This document shows, piece by piece, positions 35,474 through 41,737 of a stretch of DNA of 64,000 nucleotides. How positions within the stretch are numbered: position 1 is the first letter of the stretch; each line of letters starts with the position of its first letter. Below the pieces are notes generated by a model. It did no database searches, was not told the origin of the DNA, and saw nothing but the letters and a program-made list of their open reading frames with translations. Origin of the DNA: Anaeromyxobacteraceae bacterium (GTDB lineage: Bacteria; Myxococcota; Myxococcia; Myxococcales; Anaeromyxobacteraceae); the NCBI GenBank assembly GCA_047602405.1, contig JASGHJ010000002.1:2848001-2912000 (forward strand), written 5' to 3'. Made by a program: the position numbers and the translations under genes.

Positions 35474-36265
35474 TCACCCGTAGAAGCTCGCCTCGAGCGT
35501 GGCGAGGAAGAGGTTCGACGCCGCGTGCACGAGCACCGGGGCCGCGACCGACCCGGTCCGCGCCCGCAACCAGCCGAACAGGAGCCCCGGGAAGAAGGTG
35601 GCGAGCCGCCAGGGCTCGAGCACCACGAGGTGCCCGGCCGCGAAGAGCGCCTGGGTGGCGAGGAAGCCCGGGCCGAGCCGGGCCCCGAGGAGCGTGCGGC
35701 CGGGGCCGGGCACGGCCCGCGCCCAGGAGGTCTGCATCCAGCCCCGGTAGAAGAGCTCCTCCGGCAGCGCCACCACGAGGAGCTGCACCGGGATGCGCCA
35801 GAGGAGCCCCTCCGGCGCCCGCCAGGTGAACGCGGCGGGCGCGCCGTAGGGCGCGAGCGCGTGGGCGAGCGCGGGCGGCAGGGACGGCAGCGCGCGGGAG
35901 AAGGCCCAGAAGCCGAGGCCGAAGAGCGGGAAGACCACCGCGCAGGTCCCGAGCGCCCAGAGCGCGCCGCGCGCCCAGTCCCGGCGCACCACCGGATCGC
36001 CGGGCCCGGTGCCGGGGAGCCCGAGGCGCTCCCAGCCCTCGCCGCGGAGGCGGAGCCGCCGGTCCGGGAGGGTCACGAACAGGACCGCGGCCACCCCGGC
36101 GAGGTTCGCGCCGAGGAGGCCCGTGGGCTCGACGAGCGAGAGGAGCTTCGCGCAGAGGATGCCGCCGACCGCGAGCAGCCACGTGCGCACGAGCACGGGC
36201 GGCGGATCGGCCGGGCCGGCGGCCTCGTCGGGGTGGGTGCGCGCGTCGTCGGGTGGGACGGCCAC
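35474..36265 (-). CDS. CPBP (Abi/CAAX-type) glutamic intramembrane protease, probable myxosortase
   Basis: EELFYRG, FAAGH and HAASN motifs; the Hsp70/GATase/dgt neighbourhood resembles what I recall for M. xanthus MXAN_2755 (mrtX). Confidence 0.8.
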   Translation of the reverse strand: MAVPPDDARTHPDEAAGPADPPPVLVRTWLLAVGGILCAKLLSLVEPTGLLGANLAGVAAVLFVTLPDRRLRLRGEGWERLGLPGTGPGDPVVRRDWARGALWALGTCAVVFPLFGLGFWAFSRALPSLPPALAHALAPYGAPAAFTWRAPEGLLWRIPVQLLVVALPEELFYRGWMQTSWARAVPGPGRTLLGARLGPGFLATQALFAAGHLVVLEPWRLATFFPGLLFGWLRARTGSVAAPVLVHAASNLFLATLEASFYG

Positions 36266-36418
36266 GACGAGCGCATCTCACGCGCCCGACGGCGCGTCAA
36301 ACTCGTGTGCCGCGCGCGCGGCCGGTGTAGGCCGAGGTGCGCCGGGCGGGCCGGCCGTGGGTTCGGCGTACCCGGGAGCGCGTGCTAACCTGACGAGGTT
36401 CCACAGGGAGCCCCGCAC

Positions 36419-39400: not shown

Positions 39401-41737
39401 GACGCCTGCGCGGGCATCACCTGCGCGGCGGGCAAGCTCTGCGTCGAGGGCGTCTGCCGGGACGACACGTGCACCGGCGTCGGGTGCGGCCGGGGCCAGG
39501 TCTGCAAGGCGGGCTTCTGCGTCGACGACCCGTGCGCGGGCGTCACCTGCCCGGCGGGGGCCTGCGTCGACGGCCAGTGCTACTCGGTCGCGAACCCGGG
39601 CGGCTCGGGCGGGCTCAACGGCGACGGGACGACCGGCCAGAAGGCGAAGAGGAAGATCGGCGGCTGCGGCTGCGGCGCGGGCGGCGGGCAGGGGCCGATC
39701 GGCGCGCTCCTCGCGCTGCTCGCGGTCCCGCTCGCGCGGCGCCGCCGGGCGCCGCGCGCGGGCGGCGGGGCGCTGCTCGTCCTCGCGGTCGCGGCGCTCG
39801 CCGCGGCGAGCGGGTGCAAGAAGACGGCGAAGTTCGACCCGTCGAAGTGCGAGACGACCTGCCCGGAGCAGAACCGCTGCATCGAGCTCTCGACCGACGC
39901 GTTCAACTGCGGCGCCTGCGCCCAGGTCTGCGGCGACGGGAACCGGTGCGTCGACGGCGTGTGCGGCCCGGCCTCGGCCGTGGCGCCGTTCATCACGTCC
40001 ATCAGCCCGGCCGCGGCGGACAACGGCGGGGCGCTCCCGGTGACGGTGACCGTCACGGGCGAGCGCTTCGGCGCCGGCGCGAAGCTGCGGACCGTGAACG
40101 GCGACGGGGAGCTCCTCCTGGTCGCGCCCGAGGCGGGCGGATCCTCGACCGAGCTCCGGTACAAGCTCGACCTCTCGGTCGAGACGCCGACCACCTGGTA
40201 CGTCCGGGTCCTGAACCCCGACAACGTGGTCTCGAACGCGCGCGCGCTCGACATCACGGTCCCGTCGCCCACGATCACCCAGCTCACCCCGAGCGCGGTG
40301 CTCACGGGCGCGGTCTCGGAGATCACCGTGAGCGGCACCGGCCTCGGCGGGAACTCGCAGTGCCGCCTGAGCTCGCCCCAGCTCCTCACGACCTCGCTCC
40401 CCACCGAGGCGACCGCCGACGGCAAGCTCGAGTGCACCGTGGACGCGACGCTGCTCCCGCCCTCCACGGAGTACGCGCTCCGGGTGGTGAACATCGACCC
40501 CGCCACCGGCGATCACGCCTCGCTGCCCGCGAAGCTCACGATCGCGAGCCCGAAGCCCACGCTCACCGCCATCAGCCCCTCCATCACCGAGGCGGGCGCG
40601 TTCGTGACGGTCACCCTGGGCGGCACGGGGTTCAACGCGAACAGCAAGGCCCTCTTCGACGAGGGCAAGGCCACCGCGGCCACGCTCAACACGACCTTCC
40701 TCGACCCGACCCAGCTCCTCGTCGCGAACCTCAAGATGCCGTCCTGCGCCTCGGGCACCTGCAGCCACACGCTCGCGGTGCGCAACGACGAGGACCCGCT
40801 GCTCACCTCGCAGGCCCTCACGATCCTCGCCGGCGGCCAGCCGCCGGTGGTGAGCGGGCTGTCGCCCGGGACCGGGTACCAGGGCGAGACCGTGGTGCTC
40901 ACGCTCGCCGGCAGCGGGTTCACCGCGGGCAGCTTCCTCGAGGCGGCGCCGCCCGGCGGGAGCTTCACCGCCCTGACCGCGCCGGGCACGCCGAACTGCC
41001 CGGGCGCCTGCGACAAGATCGTCGGCACGCTCGACCTGACCGGGAAGCCGGACGGCGCCTGGCAGGTGCGGGCGACCTACGCGGGCGGCGGGACCTCCGC
41101 GCCGTTCTCCTTCCGCGTGCTCTCGAACGTGGCCGTGCTGCGCGACGCCAGCCCGCGCGGCGGCGCCCAGGGCGCCACCGTCCCGGTCGTGCTCACCGCG
41201 AGCAACCTCAGGGCCCCCTTCGACCAGATCCGGGTGGTCTTCGACGGCCAGGCGCTCGTCCCGACCTCGACGCCGGTGGGCTCGCCTCCGACCACCGTCA
41301 ACGTCTCCCTCGTGCTCACCGGCAAGAACACCGGCACGTACAACCTGGCGGTGCGGAACGCCGGCGCGACGGACTCGAACACCATCACCTTCAACGTGAC
41401 CCCCGGCCAGCCCACCCTGACCTCGGTGAGCCCGACCGCCGCGCCGCGGCAGACGAACAAGGTGAAGGTGACCCTCACCGGCACCAACTTCGCGAAGCCC
41501 GACGCGCTCGGGAACGGCGGCTCGGCGGTGCACATCTCCAACGCCGCCATCGGCGTCACCGACTTCGCCGTGCCGAAGACCGACACGACGGTCGTGAGCG
41601 CGACCTCGATCGAGGTCATGCTCGACACGCTCGCGGCGATCCCGGCGAAGTACGACGTCGCGGTCTACAACCCCGGCGGCCCGACCCCGCCGCAGAAGTC
41701 GAACGTGCTGACGCAGGCGTTCGAGGTGCAGCCGTAG
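36419..41737 (+). CDS. 1772-aa Cys-rich surface protein: signal, N-terminal domain, MopE-like and EGF-like Cys repeats, internal MYXO-CTERM, second signal/lipobox, tandem IPT/TIG-like domains
   Basis: EICDGLDNDCNGLVDE repeats; DPCAGVTC repeats; GGCGC...LLALLAVPLARRRR; LLVLAVAALAAASGC; P.ITSISP / PTLTAISP / PTLTSVSP Ig-like starts. Confidence 0.9.
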   Translation: MATSPRRHRLLAGLVPIALVAGALPLLAPTCGGTGEGAKTFARYSLVIPMDRCYQSMTDASWTTTSLPAPSTCPQAMDPGDVVKAYGLVYQLIRNDVAVYWVINGTKTKAADEDFRIQWDGGAPAVLYDWATGGKPGASSTPPTTQHVVAYRGGPFVVDGSDFEKASGILQQYKTTFQNVNVHVANVAFSGFVKKVMAGGWSAGGSVPPKLALLNIGSGNRSSSNPPTISDPKNAEPVISGYLSKAGIGSGTAAGTATGTHGEIYDRLGIDDFQPAAGSTDWKTSNFGKNGYQILWVPHWLAPGSCSDYSSGSACAATLYSSTKTDQVLKTIGGFVAAGGDLFAECAGLGSFEGTFTRDKTGQATTTYTSNYQDGDPSTRFQSTTGLRYSESGNEVSYTTPIRFPDPTNASAPADTSPNFASPLLQIGDFVFKPQSGAVDVFRPNLTASPAGAYQPGTLRLISAQAPNDLWDFFTVRPTAGTRGTIVYLGGHSYSDSNFQIGGTRLVLNTLFNLGAGCTASGVACDTGKLGVCALGRLQCAGDPPAPTCVQVNQPSAEICDGLDNDCNGLVDEGLETACYDGPAGTKNVGLCREGVRQCVQNPDGSFGMSACVGEVVPAAEVCNALDDNCNGQVDENLTEACYDGSAKTIDNETGLPKGVCKQGVRTCTEGNWGACVGQVLPTPEVCTEGNNVAADEDCDGFIDNAACVCSPGQVRQCYTGPAGTAGVGTCKVGTQSCGATGWGACTGEVVPLPAEICTPQGGTPADENCNGQTDEGCGQCQSGTSRSCYDGPASSTDGGGNPRGVCKKGTQACVNGKWEEACAGETLPSPADPCDGLDNDCDGVVDDGAVCAPGYQCEVGVCVPSVCGTEQPCPEGYGCQSGSGCKQQAGGCGGVTCPPGESCRFGACSDPCAGVTCGQGSTCVSGSCTGGACYFTGCPTGQLCRQGACEADPCAGMNCPSGTFCREGLCVQACTFVSCKAGERCGDDGFCVVDACAGITCAAGKLCVEGVCRDDTCTGVGCGRGQVCKAGFCVDDPCAGVTCPAGACVDGQCYSVANPGGSGGLNGDGTTGQKAKRKIGGCGCGAGGGQGPIGALLALLAVPLARRRRAPRAGGGALLVLAVAALAAASGCKKTAKFDPSKCETTCPEQNRCIELSTDAFNCGACAQVCGDGNRCVDGVCGPASAVAPFITSISPAAADNGGALPVTVTVTGERFGAGAKLRTVNGDGELLLVAPEAGGSSTELRYKLDLSVETPTTWYVRVLNPDNVVSNARALDITVPSPTITQLTPSAVLTGAVSEITVSGTGLGGNSQCRLSSPQLLTTSLPTEATADGKLECTVDATLLPPSTEYALRVVNIDPATGDHASLPAKLTIASPKPTLTAISPSITEAGAFVTVTLGGTGFNANSKALFDEGKATAATLNTTFLDPTQLLVANLKMPSCASGTCSHTLAVRNDEDPLLTSQALTILAGGQPPVVSGLSPGTGYQGETVVLTLAGSGFTAGSFLEAAPPGGSFTALTAPGTPNCPGACDKIVGTLDLTGKPDGAWQVRATYAGGGTSAPFSFRVLSNVAVLRDASPRGGAQGATVPVVLTASNLRAPFDQIRVVFDGQALVPTSTPVGSPPTTVNVSLVLTGKNTGTYNLAVRNAGATDSNTITFNVTPGQPTLTSVSPTAAPRQTNKVKVTLTGTNFAKPDALGNGGSAVHISNAAIGVTDFAVPKTDTTVVSATSIEVMLDTLAAIPAKYDVAVYNPGGPTPPQKSNVLTQAFEVQP

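Follow-up and report, generated by a model that had tools for sequence, protein, structure and literature searches.

Chains that come apart at a signal peptide lying inside them, after a membrane anchor, are known from the FbcH cytochrome b-c1 precursor of Bradyrhizobium and from viral envelope polyproteins; these use signal peptidase I-type cuts, whereas in the candidate polyprotein described here a sortase-type and a lipoprotein-type cut would stand back to back. The gene in question is an open reading frame (ORF) of 1772 amino acids (aa) in a stretch of 64,000 nucleotides (nt) from an Anaeromyxobacteraceae bacterium (GenBank GCA_047602405.1, contig JASGHJ010000002.1, positions 2,848,001 to 2,912,000; hereafter the window, with positions counted from its first letter), and it carries deep inside its frame a MYXO-CTERM sorting tag with a second export signal directly behind it. 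We consider it probable that the chain made from this one gene is cut twice at a central membrane hairpin to give two separately lipid-anchored envelope proteins, a reading that fits the anatomy of the sequence and its conservation among relatives better than every rival explanation.

Among described systems, the sorting of TraA by the myxosortase MrtX (PMC11980579; preprint 10.1101/2023.06.07.544157) shares with this locus, as far as those accounts extend, a tripartite Cys tag, an MrtX orthologue, an N-terminal signal and GspD; it differs in that here the tag lies 662 residues from the C-terminus and a further, lipobox-bearing export signal comes after it. The accessible text of the same work reports that MrtX cleaves its own tag even in Escherichia coli, that in Anaeromyxobacter the tag occurs on ORFs lying divergent from mrtX, and that there is an internal MYXO-CTERM in MXAN_5598 of Myxococcus xanthus, the N-terminal part of which is proposed to be processed and surface-anchored (PMC11980579). 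MXAN_5598 is alike in having an internal tag in a large fusion, and three ORFs of our source genome share its tag and OmpA layout; on the other hand, its C-terminal part is a beta-barrel plus OmpA, whereas that of the 1772-aa ORF is a predicted immunoglobulin (Ig)-like lipoprotein, and neither a second signal nor what becomes of the C-terminal part of MXAN_5598 is mentioned in the accessible text. HVO_0405 of Haloferax volcanii is likewise the product of a gene fusion and has its sorting signal in the middle, where the sortase ArtA cuts it (PMC7157517), but that fusion is strain-specific, the enzyme belongs to another family and the available portion of the report describes no second export signal. 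The feature of the window belongs within MYXO-CTERM sorting and is not a separate system: one internal MYXO-CTERM tag and tagged ORFs beside Anaeromyxobacter mrtX are already in print and, going by the available parts of these sources, the second signal appears unreported. Our literature search found no report of an internal MYXO-CTERM joined to a lipoprotein signal, although subscription papers and unread supplements may hold one.

The internal tag, the second signal and the facing mrtX gene

The long ORF, its parts and the gene facing it are laid out as follows.

36419..41737, + strand: whole ORF, candidate polyprotein (single translated frame)
36419..36511, + strand: N-terminal export signal ending in Cys31 (LLAPTC), a non-standard lipobox (Cys31 invariant in 32/32 aligned orthologues)
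36512..37969, + strand: head of putative product 1, its second part with a predicted class I glutamine-amidotransferase/ThuA-like fold (model, fold matches)
37970..39658, + strand: Cys-rich repeat stalk with 74 Cys and PF11617 repeats, ending in a Gly/Ser linker (family scan)
39659..39748, + strand: internal MYXO-CTERM (GGCGC, helix 1, RRRR), with invariant Cys1085 at 39671 (TIGR03901, alignment)
39737..39817, + strand: second signal, with RRRR as n-region, helix 2 and lipobox ASG-Cys1133 at 39815 (conservation of 34 junctions)
39815..41734, + strand: putative product 2, 640 aa, Cys-rich in a small first domain, then six IPT/TIG (CoaZ) domains predicted to be Ig-like (NF058597, PF01833, model)
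35474..36265, - strand: myxosortase MrtX of the CPBP family, divergent from the long ORF (NF040593)

An earlier note on this DNA, made from its letters alone, had described the ORF as uninterrupted, and translation of 36419-41737 bears this out: it is a single open frame with no stop, and the guanine-plus-cytosine fraction at third codon positions is 1.0 in each 30-codon bin across residues 990-1230. Inside the ORF we found no promoter matches and no plus-strand terminator matches, about as expected by chance. The nearest named relatives of the locus are Anaeromyxobacter records, and in relatives open frames of about 1750-2900 aa cross the junction between tag and second signal.

The complete MYXO-CTERM that the note had read at residues 1081-1110 combines a Cys motif, a transmembrane helix and an Arg cluster, and a 47-aa segment containing it exceeds the cut-offs of two hidden Markov models (HMMs), TIGR03901 (26.6 bits, cut-off 20) and TIGR03382 (18.6 bits, cut-off 15.85). 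With TIGR03901 the tag reached 27.7 bits in the genome search, and the N-terminal half alone (residues 1-1110) 19.0, slightly below the cut-off. Its position is atypical, since 662 residues lie beyond RRRR, and it is likewise internal in 56 junction strings of the census described below. An N-terminal signal peptide is also present: residues 1-30 are basic and then hydrophobic, as are 17/17 N-termini shown, signal peptides being judged by pattern tests throughout this work.

Past residue 1110 the order is APRAGGG, a second hydrophobic stretch and ASG-Cys1133. Thus both the lipoprotein-type signal that had been proposed right behind the tag and its Cys at 39815 were found, the Cys being conserved in 34/34 aligned junctions, and the roughly 640 Cys-rich and IPT/TIG-like residues said to follow proved to be exactly 640, with matches to NF058597 and PF01833. 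All 34 junctions show a basic n-region, an uncharged h-region, a small residue at -1 and the invariant Cys, with an uncharged run of 12-22 residues ahead of the lipobox; three alignment columns are invariant, namely the tag Cys, one Arg and the lipobox Cys (locus L061, left out of this alignment, has the same layout by eye). The -1 residue is Gly, Ala or Ser in 34/34 internal lipoboxes, compared with 210/229 Cys-ending signal-like N-termini of the source genome, and over 55 distinct junctions the loop between the helices holds 338 basic and 3 acidic residues. When internal positions of the genome's ORFs were drawn at random 20,000 times, an h-region with [GAS]-Cys began no more than 62 aa away in 52 cases (0.26%), which gives the chance level. 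In addition, positions 1-63 of a lipoprotein-like model, NF041328, align from residue 1120. Judged by pattern, then, the second signal has the appearance of a functional lipoprotein signal, except that it does not open a protein after a start codon, ATG, GTG and TTG being absent in frame. Because the Cys count of the stalk is even in 31/31 orthologues and that of the C-terminal half, the lipobox Cys excluded, is even in 26/31, the tag Cys and the lipobox Cys are likely to be free thiols.

The divergent CPBP protease beside the ORF, suggested in the note to be a myxosortase, is recognised as MrtX by NF040593 (191.2 bits, cut-off 180), while the MrtC and MrtP models stay below their own cut-offs. 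Its product has the family motifs EELFYR, FAAGH and HAASN, its start lies 153 base pairs from that of the long ORF, and it is the sole MrtX match in the source genome, which also has one lgt match, two lspA matches, gspD and lolA. Across the polyprotein family, 24 loci have mrtX in divergent orientation, and in 8 short-form loci it comes immediately downstream of the ORF, on the same strand.

Conservation of the join across relatives

The earlier note had asked for homologues with the same internal tag, and these are numerous. With a threshold of E 1e-25 or better, a 400-residue query spanning the junction found matches in 57 of the order's 301 genomes and in 49 of the 91 in the family, and no match spanning the joint contains a stop. 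We took a census of 75 distinct strings over the loci collected: 56 have an internal tag plus lipobox; three were scored as internal without lipobox (two have one by eye past a long loop and one is frameshifted); in five the tag was not detected (one has a tag and second helix by eye, two are frameshifted, one is another protein and one has an early stop near a contig end); nine are cut by the end of the sequence; and two are terminal tags, both belonging to other proteins. After de-duplication 55 junctions remain, with 18 spacer lengths (45-67 aa), all in frame, even though the two alternative frames stay open in 42 and 55 of these junctions. Since the relatives share descent, the junction counts cannot be taken as independent trials, and support for the frame comes from the relatives' sequences and not from reads. 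The public sequencing runs did not include this strain: no RNA run was listed, the DNA runs have at most 0.17 of the sequence words in common with it, and none of the contigs obtained crosses the junction. The same in-frame join occurs in the complete chromosome of Anaeromyxobacter oryzae (L084) and in three single-contig assemblies. On this comparative evidence we regard the join as a genuine, conserved feature.

Homologues split into two genes after RRRR are not the rule. Among 150 representatives, P0053 has the Cys-ending N-terminal signal and stalk of the polyprotein family and terminates just past the tag, and a spacer and a Met separate tag and lipobox in P0051; both nest within the fused clade with an approximate likelihood ratio of the Shimodaira-Hasegawa-like type (SH-aLRT) of 100 in a quick tree of 38 heads rooted at the midpoint. 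Given this placement, the split form would be secondary, and the join looks dispensable. Other apparent split forms were rejected: in genomes G001 (L033), G020, G074 (L065), G012 (L120) and others the frameshifts lie outside the tag-to-lipobox joint or at several positions of the gene and are read as assembly errors, and the tag-terminated protein of G055 (L057) is a von Willebrand factor A (VWA)-domain protein that has the stalk alone in common. At L076 a stop precedes the tag, near a contig end.

A short subfamily (L059-L064, L066 and L067) has a stalk with 54 Cys and a C-terminal half of 340-361 aa (seven measured). Matching of stalk and C-half lengths was considered and dropped, as the correlation over 31 orthologues (rho 0.61) rests on the division into long and short forms and falls to 0.16 (p 0.46) in the 24 long ones.

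Proposed cutting of the chain and the alternatives

The proposal of the earlier note, a polyprotein cut twice at a helical hairpin, is the best fit to the anatomy and conservation described above; the cuts themselves we infer from sequence, and think probable. The Sec system would export the first 1080 residues (head and stalk), helix 1 and RRRR would stop transfer, and helix 2 would restart export, now of the final 640 aa. With Cys1133 lipidated by Lgt, LspA would cut ahead of it, releasing product 2 with its six Ig-like domains. The Cys of the tag would also receive a lipid, and MrtX would cut just past it in line with the proposal for TraA; product 1 (a head resembling class I glutamine amidotransferases and a disulfide stalk) would then be anchored by its C-terminus and bound for the surface via type II secretion, and the cell would discard the hairpin, which has about 47 residues. 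Co-made at one Sec channel, the two putative products are likely to be partners in surface adhesion; the earlier note had supposed that they would arise in a 1:1 ratio, both as surface proteins.

Several observations weigh against this double cutting. On the whole 1772-aa protein TIGR03901 scores 20.1, barely over its cut-off of 20, and in whole-protein scans the tags of L059, L061, L066, L038 and L035 fall below it. The -3 position of the internal lipoboxes is Ala or Gly in 28/34 and Leu in five, whereas Leu is the commonest residue there in the genome's own 229 Cys-ending signals (111/229, against 58 with Ala), and the C-half Cys count is odd in 5/31 orthologues. Free-standing full-length C halves were not found, at limited sensitivity, among 7,997 candidates scored, which gave eight matches, the best partial (the gene after P0053 was outside this scope), and the literature consulted held no documented case of LspA acting on an internal signal. 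Finally, no mrtX was seen in the region examined around four orthologues, which come from two other families, and of a further 14 genomes of the genus 12 have mrtX without an adjoining polyprotein gene and two have them side by side; the link between polyprotein and mrtX is therefore suggestive and not obligatory.

Of the alternatives, a single cut holds up best, and it still seems unlikely. LspA would free product 2 while product 1 stays on its inner-membrane hairpin, or MrtX would cut while product 2 stays; MrtX processing of TraA is not absolute (PMC11980579), and the length of the C-terminal extension might get in the way of either enzyme. The invariance of both Cys in 34/34 junctions, however, suggests that both sites are used. 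If there were no cut at all, the chain would stay in the inner membrane with its two helices and reach into the periplasm with two large arms, and its signals would be relics of an old gene fusion, in keeping with a fusion that is nearly universal in the clade and with the missing free C halves. We regard this as improbable: relic signals should erode, but neither the two Cys nor the small -1 residue has changed although the spacer length ranges from 45 to 67 aa, and the barrels of the three OmpA-type ORFs described below (inferred by likeness to MXAN_5598, OmpA alone having scored) would need release from the inner membrane. A peptide of MXAN_5598 (741-755) was also present in all three vesicle samples of an earlier study, as far as its accessible data go (PMC4158809), a weak point as this is a different protein.

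Translation from an internal in-frame start, which would yield the second protein without cutting, is very improbable. It could draw on the Met past the tag in P0051 and on the 21 of 55 junctions that hold some ATG, GTG or TTG in the zone, three of them ATG; but where such codons are present their positions disagree, and 34 of the 55 junctions have none, among them that of the window, which has no ATG, GTG or TTG in frame from 30 codons ahead of the tag up to Cys1133. The absence of starts, counted as these three codons (rare ones such as CTG being outside the census), thus disfavours a restart. An assembly artefact, two genes merged by a lost stop codon, can be practically dismissed: reads have not confirmed the junction, but relatives refute the idea with the same in-frame join in dozens of independent genomes.

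If double cutting is correct, it would provide a bacterial route by which one gene, with housekeeping membrane proteases only, gives rise to two envelope proteins of different anchorage; an internal signal would be a possible substrate of LspA, and to annotate giants of this sort as a single adhesin or membrane protein would be wrong. Since the hairpin holds both types of Cys in one chain, it could also be used to probe whether Lgt lipidates MYXO-CTERM. Rather tentatively, one may go further and imagine that in Myxococcota the tag fused to a second export signal is a general polyprotein joint, a counterpart of viral envelope polyproteins, at which MrtX together with LspA or signal peptidase I would divide one chain into at least two envelope proteins that are partners (the layout occurs at 4 of the 12 tags in the source genome). 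In this wider and doubtful picture, product 1 of the window would be lipid-anchored at both ends via a non-standard A-[PS]-[TS]-Cys box and paired with the Ig-domain lipoprotein as a two-part adhesin, and its head would be a PilY1-related domain with a Cys-His site.

Predicted products, other tags and neighbouring genes

The structural model of the head (residues 32-517) has a mean predicted local distance difference test (pLDDT) of 83. Its second part is predicted to adopt a class I glutamine amidotransferase/ThuA-like fold, matching ThuA-like 4pxy_A with Z 13.2 and a root-mean-square deviation of 3.4 over 218 aligned residues (all 50 matches listed have Z of at least 9.7), and Cys346 and His492 are invariant in 32/32 orthologues. 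Pfam and NCBIfam models gave no match to the head region (36512-37969), and a search of the ESM Atlas with the head reached a best score of 0.85, which serves as a lead only. Among 12 head homologues scanned, two exceed the cut-off of PF05567. The head family opens PilY1-type proteins in Nitrospirota and Geobacteraceae records and, because such proteins start with a head of the same kind, the head would point to adhesion. The family is also found in terminal-tag proteins of Minicystis, Nannocystis and Kofleriaceae records, and with ordinary terminal tags in six GTDB loci (L150, L152, L155, L156, L158 and L159); in L128, L185, L187, L188 and P0044 the head domain is C-terminal, behind Ig-like and Cys-rich parts. 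Product 2 matches NF058597 with 109 bits and PF01833 with 50.9 bits, its model (pLDDT 85.5, predicted template modelling score 0.47) is nearly all beta, and its best fold matches are tandem Ig chains.

As the earlier note had remarked, the N-terminal signal, too, ends in a Cys. It ends in LLAPTC, and this Cys31 is invariant in 32/32 orthologues, but the box is not a standard lipobox: in place of Gly, Ala or Ser at -1 the window has Thr, which occurs there in just 3/229 signal-like N-termini of the source genome, and relatives have mostly Thr, Pro or Asn, with Ser in some. A role of Cys31 as required disulfide partner of Cys53 or Cys346 was rejected, as homologues without Cys31 retain both, with odd counts (three of seven tried were scorable). 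Cys31 may pair within the polyprotein family.

We counted 12 tags in the source genome (of 13 pattern hits, 10 were accepted as real on inspection by eye, and HMMs added two), eight terminal and four internal, and all four internal tags directly precede a second signal. In three of the four the signal is of a signal-peptidase-I type (AxA/Gln-type) and leads into proteins ending in OmpA domains.

Contig C1, 401705-407011, - strand: internal-tag OmpA ORF (L077-L079)
Contig C2, 3421737-3428324, + strand: internal-tag OmpA ORF (L077-L079)
Contig C2, 2278142-2282596, - strand: internal-tag OmpA ORF (L077-L079)

No FtsZ motif was found within 25 kb of the internal-tag genes. The N-termini of L077-L079 have the standard lipoboxes LSAC, LTSC and LLAC, and the final residues of the C1:401705-407011 ORF look frameshifted. 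An ORF of about 2190 aa on the same contig (C1:2257714-2264298, + strand) has an N-terminal lipobox, LAAAC, and a terminal MYXO-CTERM, so that proteins anchored by their two ends may be common in this genome.

In the short subfamily (L059-L064, L066 and L067) the downstream mrtX in some cases abuts the stop codon of the ORF. Two genomes of the genus without the polyprotein gene have, divergent from mrtX, an untagged Cys-rich lipoprotein of about 795 aa (L253:8417-10855 and L256:3786-6494). The gene just past mrtX in the window (34410-35453, - strand), which we take from a motif to resemble a dGTP triphosphohydrolase, has counterparts after mrtX in nearly all genus loci examined. Farther out, the ORF at 27439-28752 (+ strand) is presumably akin to IS4-family transposases, going by its appearance, and an intergenic repeat of about 700 nt occurs at 29920-30593 and 41779-42442, with pieces 81-96% alike and matches at about 20 places in the genome.

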